Below, one piece after another: positions 16,343 through 61,322 of a stretch of 64,000 nt of DNA (within the stretch, counting starts at the first letter, position 1; the number at the start of each line of letters is the position of its first letter). The notes under the pieces are model-generated. The model was not told the DNA's origin and did not search any database. It saw only the letters and a program-made list of their open reading frames with translations. The stretch comes from an uncultured virus (IMG/VR IMGVR_UViG_3300035183_000083). Lineage: Duplodnaviria; Heunggongvirae; Uroviricota; Caudoviricetes. The position numbers and the translations under genes are program-made. The DNA lies in the IMG/VR virus record IMGVR_UViG_3300035183_000083; one strand, 5' to 3'.

Positions 16343-16621
16343 CTAAGTCCGAGGCTTGGATCTGGAAGAGTTACTCCCAGTATTGAACCTGGTTTCCAAT
16401 TGGTCTAGCTTGCCCTTGCTAGCAAGTGTGTTGAATCGTACCTGAGCTTGAGCTTGAGCTTGACCTTGGCCGTCGGATCGAAGTTCCGACCGAAGTATCT
16501 GCACGTCCTTAGGTGCTTCAAGTCCCAACCGAACTTGATTGTTTTTGATACTCAGTACAGTGATAATGATGTTATCACCAATATGAATGGATTCACCGGG
16601 GTTGCGAGATAGTACCAGCAT
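16343..16621 (-). CDS. csrA: Carbon storage regulator CsrA/RsmA
   Basis: MLVLSRNPGESIHIGDNIIITVLSIKNNQVRLGLEAPKDVQILRSEL; strong AAGGAG SD. Confidence 0.95.
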   Translation of the reverse strand: MLVLSRNPGESIHIGDNIIITVLSIKNNQVRLGLEAPKDVQILRSELRSDGQGQAQAQAQVRFNTLASKGKLDQLETRFNTGSNSSRSKPRT

Positions 16622-16660: not shown

Positions 16661-18076
16661 TCAGCCCTGGCGTAAAGTAATAGTCTGTTTGCCTCTCCTT
16701 AAACAAAGTCCATCAGGTGATTTATCAACGTAAATCTTAGCGAACGGGTACTCTCGCTCTATGTGAGAGGCCAAATTTAAGGCAACTCGCCGTAACGTTG
16801 GGTGAACAGTCGCCTGCGACCGTAACTCAGCGACATAAATTGCATGAGGTAAACTATACTCTGCATTTACAGTAGATACCAAACCTAAGGGAAGATGGTA
16901 CAGGATTTCCGTCTTATTAGGTAGCTTATCGTACTCAGTTTGGAGACTTCCAAGTTGTGACGAAATAAAGGCCAGAGCTTTCTCTCCAAGATCAGTAGGT
17001 AGCTGATTGATGTACCAAGGCTCGAACATATGGTAGGGTGTCAATAACGGAAGCCTACATGCGGCGCCTCTGTGACGTTGAAGATCGCGGAAGGAGCCAA
17101 AGTCCAGGTTAAACTGACACTGGAAGTATCCAAACCGAGAGAAGTGCCGCGGTACCTGAAGGCGCTTGCTTCTGGTCTCTAGGAAAGTCCTGGCTGCATA
17201 ACAGTCTTCACCAGTAAAGGAGTTGTACTGCATGAGGTCCTTATGCTGTATAAACCGGATAGACTCTCCCTGGCAATGGTCAGTATCAAAGAAATAAGCC
17301 TCATTCATCAACTGGATGTCTTCAAACTCAAGCCGGTTGAGGTAGTCGTGAGGATCTAAATAGGGGAAGCTGCTAGGGTACAAAGAGGTCAAGCCAGACA
17401 AAGCATTGATCGCTATTAACCGGAGTTCTTTCAAAGGGTGGACCAGCAGTTCCACCAACTTGTCTCTGGTTTTACGTATGCTGAGTTTCCAACTCAAGTT
17501 GGTCCGCATACCGATGGGTAAGAAGGCGCGTTGGATGTCGAAGGTCCTAGCATCCACTGCTGTCTGATACAAGGACTCATCTGCATCCTCCGGCAGGACC
17601 GACCGATACTTCTGTTCGACATAGGCCCTTACTTGAGGTCCGATGTTCAGGTAAAAATCCAGCCAGTTACGTTGGAGTTTCGCCAGCTTTTCACTATGGT
17701 GCTGCGGGAATACCATATTCGGATCATCGAAATTGCAGAACCTGGTGGACCGTTCTACACCGTTGTACAAGTCGTTGTCTTCCAGCACCTTGGCTGCTTG
17801 TAAAGACACGCCTTCAAAGAAGATAACGATGTCAGCGCAATCACCGATGGAATCGTGATTATAGCCAACATACCATTTGTTGAGCTTTTCCTTGATTCCG
17901 GGAATGTCCGAATCGCCTAGGTCACGAAGACGTTGCTCGATAGGAGTGTCAAGGCGACTATAAAATGCTTGCAACATAGCCAAGATTTCAGGGTCTGCCA
18001 AGCAGGGAAACTTCTTGGTATCAGCAATGACCAGGTGGGATTGGATAGAATCAGCAGTTTTCATTTGAGACCTCAT
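16661..18076 (-). CDS. thyX: FAD-dependent thymidylate synthase (long, tandem-domain ThyX type)
   Basis: YSR, GYNHDSIGD, ERSTRF, FRDLQRHR, ELRSQATVHPTLR motifs. Confidence 0.88.
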   Translation of the reverse strand: MRSQMKTADSIQSHLVIADTKKFPCLADPEILAMLQAFYSRLDTPIEQRLRDLGDSDIPGIKEKLNKWYVGYNHDSIGDCADIVIFFEGVSLQAAKVLEDNDLYNGVERSTRFCNFDDPNMVFPQHHSEKLAKLQRNWLDFYLNIGPQVRAYVEQKYRSVLPEDADESLYQTAVDARTFDIQRAFLPIGMRTNLSWKLSIRKTRDKLVELLVHPLKELRLIAINALSGLTSLYPSSFPYLDPHDYLNRLEFEDIQLMNEAYFFDTDHCQGESIRFIQHKDLMQYNSFTGEDCYAARTFLETRSKRLQVPRHFSRFGYFQCQFNLDFGSFRDLQRHRGAACRLPLLTPYHMFEPWYINQLPTDLGEKALAFISSQLGSLQTEYDKLPNKTEILYHLPLGLVSTVNAEYSLPHAIYVAELRSQATVHPTLRRVALNLASHIEREYPFAKIYVDKSPDGLCLRRGKQTITLRQG

Positions 18077-18720: not shown

Positions 18721-19581
18721 ATGGCAACTAATTACGACGCAACCATTTATAATGACCAATCAACGGATGCAAATTTCCGGTCTTGGGTTAACTTCATTCA
18801 CAACACGTTTCTTTTGTCAGGAGCTTGGTTAGATGCCGGTGACTCCGGCCAGATGAATGTAAGCACGGTAACCCGACCTACTGCGGCTAATACATCACAG
18901 GGTTACCGCGTCTACAAAATGAATGACGGTCTCCAGTCCACCGCCCCAGTTTTCGTCAAAATCGAATTTGGATCCTCCGGTAATGCGAACTACCCTAATA
19001 TATGGGTAACCATAGGCACGGGCACTAACGGAGCTGGTACACTATCAGGTGTTATTTTTGCGAGGACTGCTATTACTACTGGCTCTGTCAACGGCACAAT
19101 AGGCACATGTTACGGTAGCGCCAGCAATAATAGGCTGACCTTAGCTATGTGGACTACTATTTCAAACCAGACTTGGTGGCTTTCTATAGAAAGGTCAAAA
19201 GACAATACGGGTGCTGACACTAATGCAGGTCTCTATTTTGCATGGGGTACTGGCGCCATTAATCATTCCAGCCAATATCTGCCCTTTAGTGGGGCTATTC
19301 CAATTGCCGAAACTGGCTTACAGTTCATCTTGTCGACCAACAATCCCACAGTATTCGGAACCTCGGTGGGTGCTGGCCTAATGATACCTATGGCAGGGGT
19401 GGGCCTGGCACCTGGATATAACATAGCTATTGTCAATAGTTCTGACTTTGCCAACTATTCGCAGTTCACCTTGAATGTATGGTCTGTCAACCATGTGTAT
19501 CAGCACATGGGACCCAACATATATGCACTACGGGCAACCCGCACAGACAGCAACACACGCCTATGCTTACTCTTTGAATAA
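18721..19581 (+). CDS. Putative virion/tail-associated protein, paralog 1 of 5
   Basis: GAGGTG SD; G/S/T/N-rich; YKMNDGLQSTAPVFVKIEFG, GTGTNGAG, SIERSKD motifs shared across the array. Confidence 0.75.
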   Translation: MATNYDATIYNDQSTDANFRSWVNFIHNTFLLSGAWLDAGDSGQMNVSTVTRPTAANTSQGYRVYKMNDGLQSTAPVFVKIEFGSSGNANYPNIWVTIGTGTNGAGTLSGVIFARTAITTGSVNGTIGTCYGSASNNRLTLAMWTTISNQTWWLSIERSKDNTGADTNAGLYFAWGTGAINHSSQYLPFSGAIPIAETGLQFILSTNNPTVFGTSVGAGLMIPMAGVGLAPGYNIAIVNSSDFANYSQFTLNVWSVNHVYQHMGPNIYALRATRTDSNTRLCLLFE

Positions 19582-19607
19582 GCTATTTGAATAAGGGGTA
19601 GCAAGAT

Positions 19608-20510
19608 ATGGCAACTGTAGCCAACACAAATTTGGTGGCTTTTAGTATGGACACAGTAGCCAAGTTTCGTGCTTGGACTACTGCCATACATTCCGTGTTT
19701 ACCCAACCTAGCACCTGGGTAAACACGGCAGATACTGGCCAAGCAGACCTTACGACGATAACTCTACCTACTGTAGCTTACGGTTTCAGTGGGTATAAAG
19801 TCTATAGGATGAATGACAGCTTACAGGCTACTAAACCGGTTTTTATACGGATAGATTTTGGCTGTTCTGCCCAAACAACTGCACCATCAGTAAAGGTAAC
19901 CATAGGCACAGGGTCTGACGGCGCAGGAACTATAACTGGTGTGCTACACCAGTCCGTAATTGCGTCGGCAGCTATATCTAATAGTGGACCTGATGTTCTA
20001 TATGGCAGCGTTGCCTCTAACAGGGTAGGCTTCTACATCCTGGGTCAGTCATATACAACTGGGGCCTACATGTGGTTTTCCATAGAAAGGTCCAAGAATG
20101 CACAAGGGCAAGATACGACAGATGGGCTAATAGTAGCTGGTGGGTCGTCCTTAACAGGTAGCTATGTTGTAATAAATTCCATGAATGCGTTGTCTCGGAC
20201 TATGAGCCATTACATACCATTCACGGGCCTTAGTACACCTGAGCCTGGTTTACACTTTGTTATGCCTTATGCAGCCCAGTCCGTCAATAACGGGATTGGC
20301 CAGTCAGTCATGCTTCCACTGTGGAATGGGGTAAAAAACCCTGGCAACAACATAATGATCCTAGGCATGGCGTACCAGCCACACGGAACCGTAACTATTC
20401 AATTATATGGGACCGCACATACTTTCTTGGTAACACGGGCAACTAATCCGCGTGGATTGTATGGCAGTTCGCTAGACAATTCACTATACATAGCTATGCT
20501 CTACGAGTAG
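19608..20510 (+). CDS. Putative virion/tail-associated protein, paralog 2 of 5
   Basis: YRMNDSLQATKPVFIRIDFG, GTGSDGAG, SIERSKN. Confidence 0.75.
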   Translation: MATVANTNLVAFSMDTVAKFRAWTTAIHSVFTQPSTWVNTADTGQADLTTITLPTVAYGFSGYKVYRMNDSLQATKPVFIRIDFGCSAQTTAPSVKVTIGTGSDGAGTITGVLHQSVIASAAISNSGPDVLYGSVASNRVGFYILGQSYTTGAYMWFSIERSKNAQGQDTTDGLIVAGGSSLTGSYVVINSMNALSRTMSHYIPFTGLSTPEPGLHFVMPYAAQSVNNGIGQSVMLPLWNGVKNPGNNIMILGMAYQPHGTVTIQLYGTAHTFLVTRATNPRGLYGSSLDNSLYIAMLYE

Positions 20511-20515
20511 ACTTT

Positions 20516-21418
20516 ATGGCCACACTAACGCAAGCCTTGACCTATTTCGCACAAGACACAGACGCTAACTTTAGGAATTGGGCCTCTTTCGTCCACAATG
20601 TGTTCACCTTACCAGGAGGTTGGGTAAACACTTCGGATACTAATCAAATAAATCTTACCACGGCAACCAAGCCAAGTCTAGCTTGGCAGAAGGTCGGGTA
20701 TAAAGTCTATAGGATGAATGACAGCTTACAGGCTACTAAACCGGTTTTTATACGGATAGATTTTGGTAGTAGCTATGATGCAAGTTTCCCAACAATCTTT
20801 ATAACCTTAGGTACAGGCTCTGACGGTGCAGGAAACATCACAGGCTTACTGGCTCCTACTTGGGCTATCGCCAACACAGTAACTAACAATAATGGCTACG
20901 GTCCTGGTTTCACTCACTATGGGTCCGCAAGCTCTAACCGAGTAGCCTTCGCACTAGCCACTTACCCAAGGATCATACCCAAAGATAACATGTGGTTTGT
21001 CCTAGAAAGGAGTAAAAATGCTGATGGTTCAGATAATGGGAATGGTTTATACGTAGCTTGGAGCACTAATTATACGAGCCAAGTGAGATCAAAGTACATT
21101 CCATTTTCAGGGCCTTCTATGAAAGAGGAACTTGGCTTACACTTCATCCTAGGAACTGCAAGTGTTGGTAATCCTGTCCTAAAGTCGAACGCTAGTAGGG
21201 TTGTGATACCATACTTAGGTAGTATTTTAAATCCCTTTGGAACACTCGTGGTAGTGAGGGATATAGACTTTGGAGAAGCAGCTACCTTGTACTTCTCAAT
21301 AAACGGTACGATGAGGAAGTTCCAACAACTTGGCTCTAATTGTAATAGCGTAAGAGCGGCCTCAGAAGTGGTAGGTAACTACGATACAGCTACACGAGTA
21401 TGTATTCTTTTTGAGTAA
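20516..21418 (+). CDS. Putative virion/tail-associated protein, paralog 3 of 5
   Basis: Same motifs; ends CILFE, like the other paralogs. Confidence 0.75.
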   Translation: MATLTQALTYFAQDTDANFRNWASFVHNVFTLPGGWVNTSDTNQINLTTATKPSLAWQKVGYKVYRMNDSLQATKPVFIRIDFGSSYDASFPTIFITLGTGSDGAGNITGLLAPTWAIANTVTNNNGYGPGFTHYGSASSNRVAFALATYPRIIPKDNMWFVLERSKNADGSDNGNGLYVAWSTNYTSQVRSKYIPFSGPSMKEELGLHFILGTASVGNPVLKSNASRVVIPYLGSILNPFGTLVVVRDIDFGEAATLYFSINGTMRKFQQLGSNCNSVRAASEVVGNYDTATRVCILFE

Positions 21419-21464
21419 AGCTATGTGTATAAATAACAGCAGACCAGTCAATAAGTAGGACTAT

Positions 21465-22312
21465 ATGGCTATTTTCACACCAACCTCGGTAACCTTAAGC
21501 ACAACGAGTTCTTTGACTTTCCAACAGCTGCCTAACTTTATCCACAATGTACTAATAAATGGTGGGTGGGTCCAAACCGCAGACCCACAAGGGACAGTTA
21601 ATGCACTGACGTGGTTAGGGTCTCCTAATGCTGACTACATTGGTGGGTACTTAATATATAGGATGAATGACAGCTTACAATCCACCTATCCGGTGTTCGT
21701 AAGATTTGATTACGGAGAGTATGACCTATACTGGCACACAATTCTAAGATTAACTGTTGGCACAGGGACAGACGCTTATGGAAACATAACAGGTGTCTTA
21801 TTTAAGACCGCAATAATGCCAAACCTCTGGTCTTCTGGTACTTCATACGGCAGTGCGACTTCAAGCAGAGCAGTTGTGGCTATTTGCACTACAGCTGGGG
21901 CTAACTACGGAATGTGGTTTTCTATAGAAAGAACCAAAAACTCCTTAGGTGCAGATAATGGCGATGGTGTGATAGTCCACACTGGCAATTCCAATGGCCA
22001 AATCAGGTCTAGGTGGTGTCCATTCAATATGGATGTAACACCGTATCATTCAAATCTTTACGCTGTGCTTCCTGGTCAGCTGACCTTATACAACGGTAAC
22101 TATCAAATGGGACTAGCTACCCCATGACTAACGTAGCGAAACAGCCTGGCATAAACATTCTTATAATGAATGCTGGGGCTGTAACGGCCAACACTAACTT
22201 TATCACTACTGTCTACGGAACGGTAAGAACTTACCGTAACATAGGGTCCTACTTTTCCTACCTTAGAGGTAACTGGGACTCCTTTACCCAATTGTATATT
22301 TTATACGAATAA
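21465..22312 (+). CDS. Paralog 4 of 5, frameshifted at about 22117
   Basis: ORFs 21465-22127 and 22124-22312 together give a full-length paralog ending YILYE. Confidence 0.7.
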
Positions 22313-22321
22313 GAGATATGT

Positions 22322-23220
22322 ATGGCTAGATTGATTACAGGTCACTACTTTCAATACGGTGGTGGAGTAGGGTCTACAGCGGTAAACCAATATAAGGTAT
22401 GGGTCACCCATATTCACAACACATTCCTATTAGGATGGGTAAACACATCTGATACTGGCCAGCTTGACATAAGTACCCTACCATCCTTAGGACTATCATC
22501 CATATCCTATAGTGGATATAAGATATACAGGATGAATGACAGCTTACAGGCTACTTATCCAGTCTATGTAAAAGTAGAATACGGTAATGGGTACCAAGGT
22601 TTGTACTGCCCAGGCTTAAGAGTTAGCTTTGGAACTGGATCTGACGGTGCGGGCAACCTTACAGGGTATTTAAATACAATCACCATATCCCCATTTATAA
22701 TTATAACTAGATGGGGCTTTCCTCTTACGGGAGTGCAGCACCCAATAGAATGAACTTCTACTTATTCGCTCAAACCCCATGGGCTTTAGGTGTGTACTTG
22801 AGTGGGTACCCTATATTTCTAGGAATAGAGAGGTCTAAAGACAGCTCAGGTGCTGATACAGGGGCTGGCTTAGTTGTAGCCTATGGCTATTATGGAGATC
22901 CAAACCTTTTATATATTCCTTTTAGTGGCGCGTATAAACCACCGTCTACCAGGCTAAACTGCATTCTATCCTCTAACTCGGCCTTTCAGGGTACAAGTAA
23001 CATCTACCTAGGACTCGTATACCCATTAAATGGAAATACAGCCCTACCGGCGATAACAAATTTCATTATTATGAAGAATTCCGATGTGCCGGCACCGCCG
23101 GTCCAGATTGGATGCTCTGTTTACGGCACAACCCGCACCTATTTGTGTTTAGGCTCATTATTTACAAACTTATTGGGCGCAAGTGACTCAATATACACTT
23201 TATGCCCATTATACGAATGA
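22322..23220 (+). CDS. Paralog 5 of 5, frameshifted at about 22713-22716
   Basis: ORFs 22322-22753 and 22711-23220 together give a full-length paralog ending CPLYE. Confidence 0.7.
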
Positions 23221-51797: not shown

Positions 51798-52916
51798 CTA
51801 GATAAGTTCCTTTATACTGTCTATTATGCAATCCATTGCATGGAGGTATTTGTCATCCAGCCTTACATCGAAGTCCTCATTATGCAAGAACCACTCCACT
51901 TTTTCGATGATCTCGTCCTCATCGTTGTATAACATCCTATTATTACCCAATAGCTCAGGATGGCTGAACTTATTAGCCGCAACGACCGGGGTATTATAGA
52001 ATAGGGCCTCAGCGATGCAGTATCCGAAGTTCTCCTCAATAGAGGTTGTTAGCATTACCCTACTTTCGGACAGATGGCGATGGTACTCGTCTTTAGATAG
52101 ACCCGACAGGATTTTGATAATACCTGCGGACTCTAAGGTCCTAGCGTAATCAACAAGCCATTTCTTATTTGACCTGAACTCCGGTCTGGACGTAGTGACC
52201 AAGATTTCCAACCCTGGATTTCTCTGCTTTAACACCACAGCTATGTCCAAAGCTATGTTTGGTCGCTTTTCCCAATCGAACCGATTGGGTAAGATCAACT
52301 GATACTTCTTATTGTATGGAAATTCCTTGTAATCGGAGGCGAAGACTGGGTTTCCAGTTACTAACACCTTATTAGCAAGGCCCATCCAATCGTCAGGCCC
52401 GCCATCTTCTTTGGAGTCCGGTGCGATAGCTTTCAATCGTCTGGTGATAACAGAATCAGCGTGATAGTGTGATCCCACGAATACCGCGTCGCAACAAGCT
52501 ACCCACCCCACCTCGGTATAGCGTTGATACGGTGACGCTACCGCAAAGGCGTCTTCAATAGTATAAGACCCTGCATGTAGGAATCCGCAGATTTTTATGT
52601 TTACCTTGTTCATTGCGGCCATTAAGCGCAAGCTTTCTAGGCCCCAGAATTCAAGGTCTGCGAAGAAGAAAACGTCACCATCCCTGATTTCCTTGTTATG
52701 GAACATTTTAGAAATAACCATCATCTGGCTATTCTTGTAATGAATCGTGCTGTTTATGTCGAGGAATGTCCCCGTCTCGACCACAGACGTTAACGGTTGG
52801 CCATCTATCACCAAGCATTCCAATCCGCGTTTGTTGAACGATAGTGGTATGTTGCGGTACCAAGATTCAGAATACCGCTCAACCAGGGGTTCGATAGGTA
52901 CGAATATGACTCTCAC
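51798..52916 (-). CDS. GT-B (GT4-like) glycosyltransferase
   Basis: PNRFDWEKRP, SIEENFGYCIAEA (Ex7E), FSHPELL. Confidence 0.88.
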   Translation of the reverse strand: MRVIFVPIEPLVERYSESWYRNIPLSFNKRGLECLVIDGQPLTSVVETGTFLDINSTIHYKNSQMMVISKMFHNKEIRDGDVFFFADLEFWGLESLRLMAAMNKVNIKICGFLHAGSYTIEDAFAVASPYQRYTEVGWVACCDAVFVGSHYHADSVITRRLKAIAPDSKEDGGPDDWMGLANKVLVTGNPVFASDYKEFPYNKKYQLILPNRFDWEKRPNIALDIAVVLKQRNPGLEILVTTSRPEFRSNKKWLVDYARTLESAGIIKILSGLSKDEYHRHLSESRVMLTTSIEENFGYCIAEALFYNTPVVAANKFSHPELLGNNRMLYNDEDEIIEKVEWFLHNEDFDVRLDDKYLHAMDCIIDSIKELI

Positions 52917-52969: not shown

Positions 52970-53668
52970 TTAAATCCGACCTTGGATCGCTCGGTCTTTA
53001 TCATTTTTGATAATGTCGGTACATCCTTGATGTTTGTGAGGGCATTCATCTGGCATGCCTTCAGGGAAGGATACACAGCAGTCGGGACAAATCCATGCGC
53101 ATTCCCCACGTGCTGCCTTATCGAATAGGTCTTGGGTCACTAAGTCCATAGAGCTTATAGCTTCCTTAAGCTGCTGGTGATTCTCTGCTTTTGCGATAGC
53201 TATTCCAGGAATCTCAACCCTACTTTCCTCAGGTTTGCCTACGCTGAGGTCGATGTCGCCGTCGAACTGGTCTGGCGTTGTGATCGTCATGTTCTCCTTA
53301 GTGACGCAGTAGACCAGCCGATCCTCATTGACGAACTTGACCTGGTCATGCGGCTTCAACTTGAAGAAGCTGGCGTCCTTCAAGTGTAGCATAACATTAA
53401 CCCAGTCGGGAAAGTTTTGCTGTAGCTCATGGGTTTCAATCGTAACCACATAACCCATGGCGTGAAATACTTCTAGTCCAAACAGTACATCTTCCGATAG
53501 GGTTGTTACGCCATCTATGTACAGCTGGTGAGCATTATTCAGAGATAGAGCTTCTATCACTTCGTTCCTTGTAAAGGAATCATCAGACCAACCATCTAAT
53601 TGTCTTGCTTGGACAAAAATTGTCCGTAGACCTTTAAAGCGGCCTTCTACTTCTATACCAAAACGCAT
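52970..53668 (-). CDS. QueE-like protein lacking the CxxxCxxC motif, with a C-terminal Cys cluster
   Basis: EGRFKGLRTIFV, GYVVTIET and DQVKFV resemble QueE segments; C-terminal CAWICPDCC...ECPH...GC. Confidence 0.5.
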   Translation of the reverse strand: MRFGIEVEGRFKGLRTIFVQARQLDGWSDDSFTRNEVIEALSLNNAHQLYIDGVTTLSEDVLFGLEVFHAMGYVVTIETHELQQNFPDWVNVMLHLKDASFFKLKPHDQVKFVNEDRLVYCVTKENMTITTPDQFDGDIDLSVGKPEESRVEIPGIAIAKAENHQQLKEAISSMDLVTQDLFDKAARGECAWICPDCCVSFPEGMPDECPHKHQGCTDIIKNDKDRAIQGRI

Positions 53669-53685: not shown

Positions 53686-54558
53686 TTATAGGTAATTGTA
53701 AACGACAGTTGACCCGTTTTCATTGTCCTCGAACACTGATACTTTACAGGATCGTCTAGGTCTTAATAATATGACCATGTCCAAGAATTTCTCGGCCAAC
53801 ATTTCACACGACTGGTAGTTGAGGTCGTCACCGAGACTTCGTATCATGTTCTCTACCTCGTGCTTGAACATGACGAACTCGATTTCCCGGTCATTATGGA
53901 ATACGGAAATCTCTATAGTAACGTGAAACACGTGCCTATGAGGGTATTTCAAGTAGGCCACTTCCTTAGGTGCATCAGGATATGCGTGGATGCCCTCGAA
54001 GGACGTTTTGATTGTGATGGTCTTCTCCAGATCCGACTGTTGGATGGACTCGAACAACCAATATTTGTCATCCCTAAGCCATAGCCTTTTCTGGGAGGGG
54101 AAAAGAGTATTTAAAGCCTCTAGTTTCCTCTCTGCTTTAGGTTGGTCAAGAACTGATAGCTCAGTGTTCATATCTACTGAGTAGAACAGAATCTTTTGGC
54201 CAGGTAGAAGGCCAGACCTACCTATCTGATTCACCGCCTTATGGTGTGGGTGTAAGTCCTTTATATTGGGTACTAGGATTGTCTCAAAATTAGTTGAGTT
54301 CATGGCTCCCCATGATGTCGCACCTAGTACGACTGGGTTGAACCCGAAGTAACTAGCCGAAGCATGAGCCTCCTTAATCCTTTTAGGATCCAGGTCAAAG
54401 AAGTACACTACATGGGATACTTTCTTTGCGGCTAGCAAACTAAAGCACCCTATCACCTCGTCATCCACATGTGGTGCCAGAATTACACAGCTACGGTCTC
54501 TTATGGTTGCAAGCATGGTCTTCAAGTTCATCGCGTTTCTCTTATTTTTGCTGGTCAA
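53686..54558 (-). CDS. Fusion: PIG-L/LmbE deacetylase plus QueD/PTPS-like T-fold domain
   Basis: N-terminal LAPHVDDEVIGC and DLHPHH; C-terminal FEGIHAYP..PHRHVFHV..REIEF..SCEMLA..VSVFEDNENG. Confidence 0.75.
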   Translation of the reverse strand: MTSKNKRNAMNLKTMLATIRDRSCVILAPHVDDEVIGCFSLLAAKKVSHVVYFFDLDPKRIKEAHASASYFGFNPVVLGATSWGAMNSTNFETILVPNIKDLHPHHKAVNQIGRSGLLPGQKILFYSVDMNTELSVLDQPKAERKLEALNTLFPSQKRLWLRDDKYWLFESIQQSDLEKTITIKTSFEGIHAYPDAPKEVAYLKYPHRHVFHVTIEISVFHNDREIEFVMFKHEVENMIRSLGDDLNYQSCEMLAEKFLDMVILLRPRRSCKVSVFEDNENGSTVVYNYL

Positions 54559-54563
54559 TTAAG

Positions 54564-55085
54564 CTACTCGGTATACTCCTTAGACACCTTTATGCCGTTG
54601 TACTTAAGATACTCCCACACTTGTTGCTCTGTCCAGTTGAAGATGGGGTACAGCATAGATAGGCCGAAGATACCCCGTTTGACGAACGCAGGCATGTTTT
54701 CCCGAGACACGTTCTCACCGTCCACGATCAGATCCGTGGACTTTTCATTCCTAGTGGCTTCGTCCCTGCGAGTGCCGTCTATCTGACACTCCAACCCATT
54801 GGCTTGAATAAAAGAAGGCATATCGGCCGACCGTACGAAATTGACTGGGCGCTGAACCGATAGGTCGTAGATAAATTGAACTGTATCGGGGTGAGTGTCA
54901 GCTTTAGGGTTGTGTGTCACTCGAATTTCAGGGCAGACTTGAATGGTGAGATCATAGATAACACAAGAGTCCTTACCTCCCGAATGACCTAAGAAAAGGG
55001 CACCGTGATAGGTGTTGAGTGCGCTCCGAATCCGCATCCGGGCTTCGATAACATGGGTCATCAAGTTTACATCAAAAGCGTTCAT
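54564..55085 (-). CDS. PAPS-reductase-family PP-loop protein
   Basis: HSGGKDS, DTHPDT, DGTRRDE, YPIFNWTEQQVWEYL. Confidence 0.85.
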   Translation of the reverse strand: MNAFDVNLMTHVIEARMRIRSALNTYHGALFLGHSGGKDSCVIYDLTIQVCPEIRVTHNPKADTHPDTVQFIYDLSVQRPVNFVRSADMPSFIQANGLECQIDGTRRDEATRNEKSTDLIVDGENVSRENMPAFVKRGIFGLSMLYPIFNWTEQQVWEYLKYNGIKVSKEYTE

Positions 55086-55124
55086 ACTAAGTCCTCTATA
55101 TAGCAGATGGTTGGTACAAGTGCT

Positions 55125-56570
55125 TTAGGAAAACAATCCTTTAGCCTTTGCTTGCTGTTGCTTACGTTGCTCTTTCGACTGTTGAGTCCTTTCAATGTCC
55201 TTAGACCTTTGTGGACCTTCAGTCCTAACCTTACTAAGGTCTAAGTCCTGTCCTACATGATAGTACAGGACACCGTTGTGTTCGGAGCATTGAGCCCCTA
55301 GCTTTCTTAATCCATAGTAGTATTCTCCCCAAAACTTATTTACAGGATTTGCTCCGTTAGCTTTCCATCCCATCAAGCTGTAGACTTCTCGTTTTGTCAG
55401 AGGCTTAGTCTCCAGCTTTTTCATCACGGTCTTAAGCTTTGGACTTTTTGCAGCCACTGCACTGAGCTTAGATTCCAAGACCTGATTAAGCTTGCGCTTA
55501 AGCCTGCCCTTGTAGCCTTCCTTGGACACCACATTAGTTCTTAAACCCTCCATGTTATAGTCCACTATGTGCTGTCTGAATTTGCGGTCCGTGTAAATCC
55601 TATGTAAGGTCTCCACCATATCCTTTCTTTTTACAGTAGACTCAGACCCGCCTATCACACGTTGGAAGGTTGGGTTGTTGCAGTCTAAGTTTAGAGTAGC
55701 TACTTGGTGCTTTATAGCATCAAAAACGGAAATGCCGTGATTCTCTATCAATGCCGTGTTGATCGTAACATTAGCCTTTAGCAGTACCGACCTGTATTCT
55801 TCCGGATCAGTGTGAAAGGGCACTATCGTAACCCATTTTTGAATATTAGGTGGTATGTGGGAAAAGACTAGCTTCTCAGTTAGAGAAGAGGTCACAATGA
55901 CCTCTATAGGTATCTTAGGATAACGGTCATGGAACTCAGATACGATGCCAAAGAAAGCCTTCGGGTTCTTAACTGCATTGAGTCTATGGTTCCATAAGAA
56001 TACCATTTTGCTAAAATCCTTCTTACCTTTGTACTCACCAAACTTAAACATATCAGGTGGTGGCAGCACCAAGAACTTCTGCCTTAGAGCCGCTACAGCT
56101 TTGACTGAAAATACCTCTCTTAGTGTGTCTCGGAAAACCATTTCCAGTGGTGGTGACAGCATGATGACCTCGGAAGCCATCATAGCAGTGTATATGTCCA
56201 TCATATGGGCTTTGTTCTTTGACCATTGCTTGGCTAGAAGGTCATCCTCAAACAGACTATGCGCAATCCGCATCACCTTAAGGAACTCGGAGAAATAGTC
56301 AAAGTGGTTGGGACTATAGTTAAGTAGGTCATTATAACTCAAGCTATCTTCCATTAAGAAGAAATCAGAATCTAGTGACCAAAAATCAAGGTCTGCAAAG
56401 GCTTCCCTAGTAAACATGACTGACCTAGGTGAGACCTGGACCAACCTGGATGTAGGGTACAGTTCCTTGTGCAGTATGTAGTAATGAGGCACATACTTGT
56501 TCTTATTGGCGTTAGTTTCCTTAATACCCAGAATGGTAAGGCTAGGCTCGTTTTTATACATAAACATCAC
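55125..56570 (-). CDS. Second, divergent GT-B glycosyltransferase
   Basis: FLWNHRLNAVKNPKAFF and IENHGISVFDA align with the NR..KRP and ENFG..EA motifs of the 51798 gene. Confidence 0.7.
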   Translation of the reverse strand: MMFMYKNEPSLTILGIKETNANKNKYVPHYYILHKELYPTSRLVQVSPRSVMFTREAFADLDFWSLDSDFFLMEDSLSYNDLLNYSPNHFDYFSEFLKVMRIAHSLFEDDLLAKQWSKNKAHMMDIYTAMMASEVIMLSPPLEMVFRDTLREVFSVKAVAALRQKFLVLPPPDMFKFGEYKGKKDFSKMVFLWNHRLNAVKNPKAFFGIVSEFHDRYPKIPIEVIVTSSLTEKLVFSHIPPNIQKWVTIVPFHTDPEEYRSVLLKANVTINTALIENHGISVFDAIKHQVATLNLDCNNPTFQRVIGGSESTVKRKDMVETLHRIYTDRKFRQHIVDYNMEGLRTNVVSKEGYKGRLKRKLNQVLESKLSAVAAKSPKLKTVMKKLETKPLTKREVYSLMGWKANGANPVNKFWGEYYYGLRKLGAQCSEHNGVLYYHVGQDLDLSKVRTEGPQRSKDIERTQQSKEQRKQQQAKAKGLFS

Positions 56571-56573
56571 CTG

Positions 56574-58064
56574 TTATAGGGATTTCTCTAGGAGTTTAAT
56601 AAGCTTTAAATAATCCTCAGCTGTGGCTGGTGATCCGCTGCTAAGGCTGGTATCGCTTGCTAGACCGGTGTGGCCCACGTGCCCACTGAACATATTTTGG
56701 GCTTGTACAACACCTTTACCACGTTCCCTATCCAGGAAGTGCAGGTATTTCTTCCTAGCTGCCTCTAACCCTTTATCTTTAACCGTATCAACGAAGTCCA
56801 GGCAATATCGAACCTCTTTGATATCCGCTCGTGTCCTTAGCTGCCCCATTATCAAGTGTGTATATTCCCTATTGGTTAGGGTTTGACGGGCTTCCTTTAG
56901 GAGTCTTGCATACTGATTCATCGCCAGCATGTTGTGGATGATTATCAATTTACGGATCATTTCCGTAGGTGCTAGGCCTAGCACATCCGCGTACTTGACT
57001 GTACGGCATACAGCACACTGACACGGCAGTATGCGTTCCATGTTGGCCGTTGAAGCCTTTTTGCCTATCGGCATGTGTACTAGCGGCTGTGTTATGTCTG
57101 CTTGGTAGTAGTAAAGCCTGTTAACTGCACATTGGATATGGTTCGTGCTATCACTGGTTATGTGAAGCCCTTGCTGGTCGGACATTGAGACTAGGATAGG
57201 TATGTGCGTCGTTTTGAACACGCCTAAGACATGGTACTGCTTATACGGTAGTCCATGGGTGATTATGTCGTACAGTGCATTAGCCATGGTTATAATGCCT
57301 TGTGCTTGTACACCACCAATAGCGCACCTGGTTACCTTAGGGTTCTCTACGATCTCCCTTAGCTCACGGCGTTCTTTGTTATTCCTACCGTGGAATATAT
57401 TTATTAGTTCTATGCCTTTGCTAGCTTTTAGCATCATTTCCGTCATTTTCTTTTGAACTATAGATGCTTTCTTCCTGACCACCGGGTCGTTAATGGTTGG
57501 TGTGGGTACATCCAGTACCATGCCAGCGTCAACATTTCGGTTGTAGAAGTCAATAAGCTCGTTAGGACTGATGGTTAGACCGTCCTTAACGTTTCGAGCC
57601 ATTTGTAGCCCACCTGAGTCAGACAATACTGTTACCCTAGTCCTGTCTCCTTTCAGGCCCACACCTGCTCTAGTGTGTTCGCTAGTGTTTGAGTGGTGGG
57701 CGTAGTTGGTCATTATGTAGTCTAGACCAAAGGCCGTAGCTACGTTATCGTTGAACAGATTAAGGTCTAAGCATTCGTCGAATGCTTCACCAATTGGCCT
57801 AATAGATTCTAACTGGTCGTTGTGCCTCACAACTAATAAGTCTCTGTCAGGACAGGCTAAGAAGATGTGGTTCTTCCCAGTCTCCACTACCTCCATCTTT
57901 CGTCTAAACTTCCGATGCCGTGTGTAGATGCAAATGTTGCCAAGGTTCTTATATACCGTACCTGCCGGTACAAATGAATACCCCTGCTTTTGGCTTTGGT
58001 CTACCTGTTGGTTGACCTTCTTATGTTGATCTTTGTTTTGTGATGCCTTTCTTTTTGTAGTCAT
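56574..58064 (-). CDS. tRNA-guanine transglycosylase / DpdA-like base-exchange enzyme
   Basis: LSDSGGLQM, MVLDVP, AIGG, YHVLGV, TSDST, zinc site CQCAVC...HN. Confidence 0.88.
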   Translation of the reverse strand: MTTKRKASQNKDQHKKVNQQVDQSQKQGYSFVPAGTVYKNLGNICIYTRHRKFRRKMEVVETGKNHIFLACPDRDLLVVRHNDQLESIRPIGEAFDECLDLNLFNDNVATAFGLDYIMTNYAHHSNTSEHTRAGVGLKGDRTRVTVLSDSGGLQMARNVKDGLTISPNELIDFYNRNVDAGMVLDVPTPTINDPVVRKKASIVQKKMTEMMLKASKGIELINIFHGRNNKERRELREIVENPKVTRCAIGGVQAQGIITMANALYDIITHGLPYKQYHVLGVFKTTHIPILVSMSDQQGLHITSDSTNHIQCAVNRLYYYQADITQPLVHMPIGKKASTANMERILPCQCAVCRTVKYADVLGLAPTEMIRKLIIIHNMLAMNQYARLLKEARQTLTNREYTHLIMGQLRTRADIKEVRYCLDFVDTVKDKGLEAARKKYLHFLDRERGKGVVQAQNMFSGHVGHTGLASDTSLSSGSPATAEDYLKLIKLLEKSL

Positions 58065-59581: not shown

Positions 59582-60685
59582 ATGGCGAAGAAGCAAGCGC
59601 AAGCAGCCGAGGCTAATAACAGCAGCAACAGAGGTGAGTCAAATGGTGATAAAGGACATGATAACTTCGACATCATTATGGAGGAGATCGAGAAGTTACC
59701 TGGGCCTAAGAAGTCTACTGCGACCTCTATCCTAGCGCAGTGTGTTTTTCACGATGACCCTTCACCGTCTATGGGTATATATGTCCTGGTAGATGGTGAC
59801 ATCCCGTTAGGGTGGTTCAATTGCTTCGGCTGTGGTGAGAAAGGTCCCTGGAATAAGCTCGCAGAGCAAGCAGGCTTAGAGAAGATCAAGGAATGGAATA
59901 CGTCAGCCACTCCTTACAACATAGTCAACAAGGCTGTAGATGACGCTTTATTAGGTGAACCGGAAGGGGACTTTAAGGTTTTGCTAAGGAAGCTGAAAAA
60001 GTCAGAAGCACACCCTTGGCCAGAGTCGCTAGATTGGCGTGGTTACCCAGGAAAGCTGGTACGTAAGATAGGCGGTCACATTGTCAATGAAGATGATAGA
60101 ATAACCAAAAGCGGGGCTAGAATCTCAGGTACAGTAAGTGTGTTGTTCCCTATCAAAATGGAGGGTAAGGTACGCGGTGCTGTTACCGCTATTTACGAGA
60201 AGCAATACAAAGGTCAGGTCGCTTACTGGACTAGCCAAGGCTCTTGGGTTAAGAACTACGGTTTATTCCCCTATTCTTACGTGAAAAACCTTATTGGTAA
60301 GAAAAAGCTGAACTTTGTAGTTCTGGTAGAGGGACCTAGAGACAGCTTGCGTTTAATAAACAACGGAATACCTGCTTTAGCGATATTGGGTGCTAACAAT
60401 TTTAGCGCCACGAAGGCGTTGTTCGTAGAATCCTTAGACGTGGAGTTTGTGTATGTGATGACGGACAACGACACAGGTGGGGCCACTATGTGGAAAGCCA
60501 TAAAGAAAGTCTTAGGTAATAGCGGTCTGCACTTGAAACGGATAAAGCTACCTACTGAGGAGGATAAACACGGAGACCTTATAAAGATGGATCCAGATAA
60601 CATGCCTAAAAAGATACTAAGGCAGTTTGTTACGTTTTTGGAGGCTGAAAATGGCTTTGTCTTTACTAAAGAAAAATTGGTCTAA
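59582..60685 (+). CDS. dnaG: DnaG-like primase (CHC2 zinc finger plus TOPRIM)
   Basis: CVFHDDPSPSM..FNCFGCG; LVEGPRD; MTDNDTGG; KMDP. Confidence 0.88.
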   Translation: MAKKQAQAAEANNSSNRGESNGDKGHDNFDIIMEEIEKLPGPKKSTATSILAQCVFHDDPSPSMGIYVLVDGDIPLGWFNCFGCGEKGPWNKLAEQAGLEKIKEWNTSATPYNIVNKAVDDALLGEPEGDFKVLLRKLKKSEAHPWPESLDWRGYPGKLVRKIGGHIVNEDDRITKSGARISGTVSVLFPIKMEGKVRGAVTAIYEKQYKGQVAYWTSQGSWVKNYGLFPYSYVKNLIGKKKLNFVVLVEGPRDSLRLINNGIPALAILGANNFSATKALFVESLDVEFVYVMTDNDTGGATMWKAIKKVLGNSGLHLKRIKLPTEEDKHGDLIKMDPDNMPKKILRQFVTFLEAENGFVFTKEKLV

Positions 60686-61322
60686 AGTTCCCTTAATAGA
60701 CAACGGTTACCACTTAGAAATATTGGAAACGGTAGCCCAATTGGTTAAGACGGAAGGCGTAACGGTATATCCGAAACGCTCGAACGTGTTTAAAGCGTTG
60801 GAACTTACGTCATTCAAGCAAACCAAGGTAGTCATATTGGGTCAGGATCCATATCATGGGGAAGGACAAGCTCAAGGGATGGCTTTTTCGGTACCATCGG
60901 GCTTCCCTATCCCACCCTCCCTGTTCAACATCTTCAAAGAGGTGAATCGTGATGTCTACAAAGGTAAGAAGGATATCTTTGAGTCAGACTTGACCAGATG
61001 GGCGACCCAAGGTGTACTATTGCTAAATACCCATCTTACGGTAGAAGATGGGAAGCCTGGATCACATTATGCTTTAGGGTGGGCAGACCTTACGGATTCT
61101 ATAATAGAAACTTTGAGTACTAAGCGACAGCATATAGTCTTTATGCTGTGGGGACGTGAAGCCCGGGCTAAAGCTAGACTTATTGACGACCAAAAGCATT
61201 TGGTGTTAGAGACGACTCATCCATCACCGTTGTCCGTGTATCGTGGCTTCTATGGATGCAGTCATTTTGGGATAGCAAATGAATACCTGAAGGCTAACGG
61301 TAAGCAGAAGATTATCTGGTAG
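60651..61322 (+). CDS. ung: Uracil-DNA glycosylase, family 1
   Basis: KVVILGQDPYH, PPSLFNI, QGVLLLN, VFMLWG, HPSPLS. Confidence 0.96.
   Translation: MALSLLKKNWSKVPLIDNGYHLEILETVAQLVKTEGVTVYPKRSNVFKALELTSFKQTKVVILGQDPYHGEGQAQGMAFSVPSGFPIPPSLFNIFKEVNRDVYKGKKDIFESDLTRWATQGVLLLNTHLTVEDGKPGSHYALGWADLTDSIIETLSTKRQHIVFMLWGREARAKARLIDDQKHLVLETTHPSPLSVYRGFYGCSHFGIANEYLKANGKQKIIW

Follow-up and report, generated by a model that had tools for sequence, protein, structure and literature searches.

Organization of the Gene Block

The window, a 64,000-nucleotide stretch of DNA from an uncultured virus, belongs to a jumbo phage whose sigma factor relates it to Lu11, PaBG, and NCTB. Its genes of interest lie in the order transglycosylase, GT4b, PP-loop enzyme, fusion, QueE-like protein, GT4, conserved gene, and sigma factor, and the features considered here are as follows (positions are those of the window):

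56574..58064, minus strand: predicted tRNA-guanine-transglycosylase-like DNA base-exchange enzyme (DpdA2-like), 26% identical to BCSR5 QRE00062 (E 2e-14)
55125..56570, minus strand: GT4b, a second, divergent GT-B glycosyltransferase of 481 aa, 38-47% identical to homologs in loci L107, L131, and L151
54564..55085, minus strand: PP-loop (PAPS-reductase-like) protein of 173 aa (Pfam PF01507, E 2e-14)
53686..54558, minus strand: PIG-L/LmbE-DpdL fusion ORF, 290 aa from TTG
54028..54501, minus strand: PIG-L/LmbE-type metal-dependent amidohydrolase domain of the fusion, residues ~20-177
53686..54027, minus strand: DpdL T-fold domain of the fusion (family assigned from sequence), residues 178-290, with the LxxxHRHxF motif and an invariant SCE
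52970..53668, minus strand: QueE-like protein, of which residues 1-142 are a probable QueE paralog without iron-sulfur cysteines (structure matches)
51798..52916, minus strand: GT4 (GT-B) glycosyltransferase of 372 aa with E-x7-E (Pfam PF00534, E 3e-13)

In NCTB, Peetri, and GR11A, the conserved gene occurs within about 300 bases after the transglycosylase gene and the five-gene block is absent from this site; in the window and in L131, the block lies between these two genes. The cultured jumbo phages NCTB, Peetri, GR11A, and PhiXhv-12 (L290, L291, L292, and L294) carry transglycosylases (30-35% identical) that are mostly annotated as hypothetical, with no deazaguanine synthesis genes annotated immediately next to them, and are candidates for DNA modification with host-made precursors. 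None of FolE, QueD, QueE, and QueC was found among the 79 ORFs of the window; FolE, QueD, and QueE are encoded by relatives.

The window's transglycosylase matched TIGR00432 (E 1e-6) and gave Atlas TGT matches, and its BCSR5 homolog, QRE00062, is listed as DpdA2 (Cui et al., 2023; PMC10516641). The GT4 is 42-50% identical to homologs in phages BUDD, X1, and BCSR5 and is a member of the PIG-L-linked GT4 clade described below. Since it scored only 18 and 17 bits against the BshA and MshA models, far below their cut-offs of 274 and 463, GT4 model scores do not fix the sugar donor; Pfam QTMAN_N was found in 0/29 glycosyltransferases scanned (E <= 0.05). Two of the GT4b homologs (L107, L131, and L151) pass Pfam PF00534, and in profile comparisons between families, made for 28 chosen pairs, GT4b matched the main GT4 with a probability of 95.6.

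All 26 members of the PP-loop family carry SGGKDS while none has ECG[LI]H. Taking these motifs in their presumed roles, with ECGLH as the catalytic tail, retention of the first and loss of the second suggest from sequence that adenylation is a more likely activity of the PP-loop protein than reduction. The QueE-like protein ends in ~90 aa of unrelated tail (phrog_31156) with a cysteine-rich end. Structural search placed three QueE structures in its top four at middling Z-scores (7.0, 6.7, and 6.7), and Atlas features gave 0.91 for QueE. The match to the QueE profile was weak (probability 8.4), Foldseek at E 0.001 gave no match, and CxxxCxxC occurs in 0/23 family members. The protein is a probable cluster-less QueE paralog, the structural search and Atlas being the two analyses that favour QueE. 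Members of this family, which lack the iron-sulfur cysteines, accompany the module, and a related 170-aa form occurs in 13/29 DpdL+GT4 loci.

Elsewhere in the window lie a CsrA-like regulator (16343-16621), a phage uracil-DNA glycosylase that adjoins the primase (60627-61322, plus strand), and tandem paralogous genes with a common N-terminal motif (18721-23220, plus strand), the last of which appears to be split over two frames (22322-22753 and 22711-23220, plus strand). A divergent 471-aa thymidylate-synthase-like protein (16661-18076, minus strand; phrog_36506, E 1.5e-12) had no PDB or NCBIfam match, and a hydroxymethyl-pyrimidine acceptor for the glycosyltransferases is neither supported nor excluded by it.

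A Two-Domain Protein

A previous, sequence-only reading of this DNA held that a single ORF joins PHxDDE/HPHH deacetylase motifs to an HxH...SCE...VxE segment forming a T-fold. All of these motifs are present in the ORF: PHxDDE at H30-E34, D-x-HPHH at D101-H106, HxH at H207/H209, SCE at 250-252, and VxE at 275-277. In the database, the gene is called from the ATG of residue 10, giving 281 aa, and this ATG, at position 54531, is probably the start of the protein. By sequence, both halves score below model cut-offs (17.2 vs. 28.2 bits for Pfam PF02585 PIG-L; 14.8 vs. 89.25 bits for TIGR03367 QueD), and a PDB sequence search with the fusion as a single protein gave no match. An AlphaFold2 model built on a 36-row alignment (mean pLDDT 92.0, pTM 0.82) was recognized by fold search as PIG-L/LmbE over residues 20-177 and as a T-fold over residues 176-290, with concordant Foldseek results. 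The C-terminal half matched 3d7j (Z 12.7, rmsd 2.4, 112 aligned) and the QueD structure 3qn0 (Z 12.6), bearing out its prediction as a T-fold. The modelled boundary falls at residue ~177, about position 54028, close to the ~54020 previously given for the junction.

This architecture is shared by other proteins. Among 88 homologs matched, 36, one of which is the window's own protein, align over 87-97% of the query, and the other 35 full-length homologs are 37-53% identical to it. Sorting of the best 150 representatives (50% clustering) by domain content gave 53 with both domains, 76 with PIG-L alone, and 21 with the T-fold alone; a strict motif check of both sites was passed by 39 of the 53 two-domain proteins. 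In addition, one contig from a second sequencing run (same year and habitat as the possible source run) covers positions 53694-55089 with 0 differences and spans the junction. The fusion is therefore genuine and recurrent. An assembly or frame artefact, for which it could be said that the two domains are encoded apart from each other in the three cultured phages that possess both, has next to no probability given the 35 further homologs, the 53/150 two-domain representatives, and the junction unchanged in the second run. No fused form of greater length (509-2000 aa) turned up in a search, which is weak evidence, and the fusion profile had no match in five related cultured jumbo phages in a search made without a positive control.

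Six PIG-L structures topped the list of fold matches for the N-terminal domain. The best statistics were obtained with 2ixd (Z 16.1, rmsd 2.9, 157 aligned), and further matches included 3we7 (Z 15.2), the GalB hydratase 5cgz (Z 13.9), and MshB 1q7t (Z 12.1). Among 171 family domains, H30, D32, D33, and H106 are invariant, R60 is kept in 170, H103 in 168, and Y126 in 170 or 171. The PHxDD, HxxH, and conserved Arg motifs aligned to those of 1uan and 8bgn, and the roles of the metal and base residues are those that we assume from MshB. Despite its sub-cut-off Pfam score and its shortened length (~155 residues), the domain is a member of the PIG-L superfamily by fold and by metal/base motifs; some of its homologs do carry the Pfam label (P0030, P0036). 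Its family and neighbours point to an N-acetyl sugar as the probable substrate.

Where PIG-L is a split gene (L107:10004-10672, L001:10031-10678, and others), it has a tail of 60-75 residues in 13/13 well-flanked loci with a separate DpdL. This tail matched the T-fold profile weakly (probability 24.9 over 34 columns) and may be a decayed T-fold, which could conceivably dock on DpdL. Fused, tailed, and bare PIG-L forms are intermixed on the tree.

Identity of the C-Terminal Domain

The C-terminal domain had been described as a QueD-like T-fold, and its relatedness to QueD stands; its motifs, however, are those of DpdL rather than of QueD. In a translated search of cultured phages, the T-fold half matched phiST CGPG_00067 and ACP17 gp125, and in 26 of the 29 phage records the DpdL half only was matched. 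Both proteins are DpdL, a paralog of QueD in which LxxxHRHxF stands where QueD has CxxxHGH and for which decarboxylation of 7-carboxy-7-deazaguanine (CDG) is a proposed reaction (Cui et al., 2023; PMC10516641). The T-fold domain is 37% identical to phiST DpdL (E 9e-20) and had no match to phiST QueD. Its motif, L203-x3-H207 R208 H209-x-F211, is invariant in 41/41 fused domains. All 12 pocket residues in the supplement of Cui et al. (phiST numbering: G15, H17, L33, H37, R38, H39, F41, R54, E57, S83, E85, and E104) are kept, their equivalents in the fusion being G189, H191, L203, H207, R208, H209, F211, R224, E227, S250, E252, and E277, respectively. CxxxHxH occurs in 0/135 DpdL domains, 41 of them fused, vs. 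CxxxHG[HY] in 44/45 neighbouring QueDs. A second DpdL was found at 0/6 fused loci, and QueC at 0/59 DpdL-containing loci and, above cut-off, in 0/5 genomes. Judged by its sequence, the domain belongs to the DpdL family, and its putative activity is most likely that of a CDG decarboxylase. In P0069 and P0074, DpdL is fused to a MazG-type pyrophosphatase domain.

Whether the domain might instead be a working QueD (CPH4 synthase) feeding the pathway was also considered. The fold is shared, the three metal histidines of QueD are present, and the window holds no other QueD. The SCE cysteine, which lies outside the listed pocket residues and is invariant in 135/135 DpdL domains, might replace the lost one, and CPH4 fits the DpdL pocket as modelled in the supplement of Cui et al., which has the pocket accepting free base only (PMC10516641). 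Against this, the total loss of CxxxHxH is joined by the presence of separate QueDs: a true QueD lies within 6 kb at 3/6 fused loci and scores above the Pfam cut-off in 3/5 genomes searched, and separate QueDs are listed for BUDD, BCSR5, ACP17, and PA5oct (Cui et al., 2023; PMC10516641). A QueD role for the domain is therefore very improbable.

Conservation of the Neighborhood

The loci analysed comprised the viral set, the stronger metagenome matches (to L178), and one genome match; weaker matches were left out because they were taken as generic PIG-L enzymes. From 178 loci with an anchor gene, 155 remained after removal of near-duplicates, and 87 of these had 3 kb on both sides. Since the loci were retrieved through their likeness to the two domains and are related by descent, the counts below are not independent events. 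Results showed a GT4 within 6 kb at 6/6 fused loci, at 12/12 loci with separate PIG-L and DpdL, and at 27/28 PIG-L loci without DpdL. Likewise, a GT4 accompanies 29/29 DpdL loci without DpdA3 (one of which, L127, came in through a weak PIG-L match and could be a member of the split class) vs. 0/12 loci with DpdL and DpdA3, i.e., the phiST type with plain dDG. The transglycosylase adjoins 6/6 fused and 10/12 split loci, and the PP-loop gene adjoins 5/6 fused, 10/12 split, and 0/41 DpdL-anchored loci. Considered from the side of PIG-L, the nearby gene is a GT4 in 45/46 loci, DpdL in 18/46, and a PP-loop gene in 18/46. The remaining 28 of the 46 have no DpdL within 6 kb; five of them have a transglycosylase and nine have QueC.

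In a tree of 39 GT4s, those from PIG-L+DpdL loci formed one branch of 16 rows (SH-aLRT 88) with a 13-row core (99). This branch spans three transglycosylase subfamilies, and grouping of the GT4s by transglycosylase type b was rejected (p-AU 1e-5). The tree carried long-branch warnings and its groups were named after the first tree, so that the comparison was not blind. In quick trees of either domain of the fusion, fused and unfused forms were interleaved with modest support, which indicates that the join has been made or lost repeatedly.

PIG-L is thus tied more tightly to GT4 than to DpdL, and a single pathway is best supported by the gene neighbourhoods rather than by the fusion. The earlier claim that the fusion is the strongest internal evidence did not hold up, given its repeated gain or loss, the additional fusion of DpdL to MazG-type domains, and the many PIG-L loci without DpdL. 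Nevertheless, the fusion gene very probably does belong with the glycosyltransferases and the transglycosylase, as had been suggested; here more weight rests on neighbourhood conservation, on the GT4 tree, and on the position of the block, inserted behind the transglycosylase gene, than on the fusion.

Other arrangements of PIG-L and GT4 were also seen. In a second system (L099, L106, L114, L121, L125, and L175), they occur with QueC, QueE, and often QueD and FolE, without DpdL, together with a further radical SAM enzyme, a short-chain dehydrogenase, a ~140-aa protein, and a different transglycosylase-like gene. A large clade (L105, L108-L113, L115-L119, L124, L126, L128, and L130) has bare pairs of PIG-L and GT4 next to a DNA polymerase gene, in many cases accompanied by a small PnuC-transporter-like membrane protein, and with no transglycosylase within the flank. 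In L087, L088, and L134, the order is PP-loop, PIG-L, QueE-like, and GT4, followed by a CmcI-type (rhamnosyl O-) methyltransferase, and DpdL is absent from the flank.

Proposed Pathway and Alternatives

We propose that the five-gene block probably attaches an amino sugar to the 7-deazaguanine of phage DNA, as an add-on to a 7-deazaguanine modification system, a reading to which we give a probability of roughly 0.55. The synthesis of CDG by FolE, QueD, and QueE is an established pathway, and these enzymes would provide CDG to the window phage. The DpdL domain would then convert CDG, most likely by decarboxylation to 7-deazaguanine, and the transglycosylase, a member of a base-exchange family, would swap this base for guanine in phage DNA. 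GT4 would attach an N-acetyl amino sugar to the deazaguanine at N2 or C7, GlcNAc being the most likely one. The PIG-L domain, with the fold and catalytic residues of a deacetylase family, would presumably remove the acetyl group to leave a free, charged amine. In the weakest step, the PP-loop enzyme, which may acylate the amine, and GT4b would elaborate the product; by analogy, ligases act after the GT4 and deacetylase steps in mycothiol and bacillithiol synthesis. The product would shield the DNA from host nucleases. The fusion would unite two neighbours of one pathway and would not be required for it. We infer the donor, the attachment site, and the order of steps, and since the DpdL pocket is modelled for free base only, the fusion might hint, at the level of a guess, that the sugar steps precede insertion.

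A more specific version, which is somewhat less probable than the general proposal, is that the DNA contains an amino-sugar purine, 7-deazaguanine plus glucosamine, perhaps acylated or bearing a second sugar. It would be made by a mycothiol-like GT4-deacetylase-ligase relay, at least in part while the base is still free, and then be inserted by a widened transglycosylase. As part of this version, the module would reuse paralogs of the folds of three queuosine enzymes (QueD-like DpdL, the cluster-less QueE, and the PP-loop enzyme). For the general proposal, a precedent is the transfer of GlcNAc to a 7-deazaguanine derivative in huimycin synthesis (PMC7439116), and the DNA of PA5oct, a phage with DpdL and GT4 but, like ACP17, without PIG-L, resists several enzymes with G in their sites (PMC12191111). 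Against a sugar stand the 28/46 PIG-L loci without DpdL, few of them with a transglycosylase, which indicate that PIG-L and GT4 can work in other settings. Plain 7-deazaguanine is also without an obvious hydroxyl for a sugar, and the PIG-L fold includes a hydratase (GalB, 5cgz).

The same DpdL-less loci also support a different role, in which GT4 and PIG-L, with or without the PP-loop enzyme, make a small amino-sugar metabolite or decorate a non-DNA target (host surface glycan, protein, or tRNA), the fusion to DpdL being an accident of adjacency. The fusion of DpdL to MazG-type domains is consistent with such an accident, and the gene trio resembles low-molecular-weight thiol pathways. However, DpdL and a long transglycosylase are joined by a GT4 of this very family in all 29 non-DpdA3 loci, the block sits directly behind the transglycosylase gene, and the nine DpdL-less PIG-L loci with QueC still have deazaguanine genes. 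We consider this role unlikely, albeit the most serious competitor of the amino-sugar proposal.

Slightly less likely still, the DNA base could be modified while PIG-L has as its substrate not the N-acetyl group of a sugar but an amide, located on the base or on its side chain. It would then act as a deformylase or trim an amide that the PP-loop enzyme had formed. PIG-L is fused to an enzyme whose modelled pocket takes free base only (PMC10516641), its domain is shortened and below the Pfam cut-off, and roseomycin synthesis includes QueC-like enzymes that form amides with CDG (bioRxiv 10.64898/2026.04.15.718813). The gene associations argue otherwise, PIG-L being near GT4 in 45/46 loci and near a PP-loop gene in only 18/46, and the GT4 tree sorts by PIG-L presence.

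If the amino-sugar proposal is true, a purine with a charged amino sugar would add a new kind of chemistry to DNA and would be likely to affect restriction, CRISPR, and modification-dependent nucleases. The module also suggests why DpdL and DpdA alone yielded no product in E. coli: expression of the ACP17 pair gave no dDG, and the authors allow a need for other enzymes (PMC10516641). A vague prediction, a glycosyltransferase beside DpdL, becomes specific, namely an N-acetyl sugar that loses 42 Da, and three cultured phages (BUDD, X1, and BCSR5) carry module genes.

Comparison with Known Systems

None of the eight 7-deazaguanine derivatives that Cui et al. give in their abstract and table (PMC10516641) bears a sugar, and the word "glycosyltransferase" is absent from the text of their supplement that was searched. 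DpdL and DpdA2 of BUDD and BCSR5 are listed there and are already known; within the literature searched, which included PMC7824862, PMC13326640, and bioRxiv 10.1101/2025.10.29.685425, no description of the PIG-L gene, the fusion, or the module was found. Amino-sugar decoration of deazaguanine in DNA was likewise found in no paper within that literature. In a genomic setting, the clusters of BUDD, X1, and BCSR5 have their PIG-L and glycosyltransferase genes annotated as hypothetical. Glycosylated deazaguanines may reportedly have been predicted already by Iyer et al. in 2013 (NAR, on DNA base-modification systems).

The dDG system of phiST (FolE, QueD, QueE, DpdL, and DpdA3; PMC10516641) resembles the window in its DpdL (37% identity, 12/12 pocket residues), in the lack of a nearby QueC, and in having a transglycosylase in the cluster. 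It differs in that the window's DpdL is fused to PIG-L, its transglycosylase is of the long, DpdA2-like type, and it adds two glycosyltransferases, a PP-loop enzyme, and a QueE-like protein; as noted, phiST-type loci are devoid of GT4 (0/12). Closer in content are Xanthomonas phage BUDD and Burkholderia phage BCSR5, in which PP-loop, PIG-L, QueE-like, GT4, transglycosylase, and DpdL genes occur together, and Xanthomonas phage X1, in which matches to PIG-L, DpdL, PP-loop, and GT4 were the ones seen. Unlike in the window, PIG-L and DpdL of BUDD and BCSR5 are separate genes, and their PIG-L has the 60-75 residue tail. The huimycin pathway (HuiG; PMC7439116) resembles the proposal in placing GlcNAc on a 7-deazaguanine-derived base, a likeness by description rather than by comparison of HuiG with GT4; it differs as an actinomycete secondary metabolite built on preQ0, as described without transglycosylase or deacetylase.

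At the level of the two domains, QueD/PTPS (4ntk, 3qn0) has the same fold and three histidines as the T-fold domain, but the catalytic CxxxHGH there is LxxxHRHxF here, in line with the low TIGR03367 score (14.8 vs. 89.25 bits). The PIG-L domain shares its fold and metal/base motifs with MshB, BshB, chitobiose deacetylase, and Dbv21 (1q7t, 6ull, 3we7, and 3dfi, respectively), although it is only 12-20% identical to them, ~60 residues shorter, below the Pfam cut-off, viral, and adjacent to DNA-modification genes. In the logic of their pathways, MshB and BshB are partnered by the GT4 enzymes MshA and BshA, and the fusion likewise has a GT4 partner.
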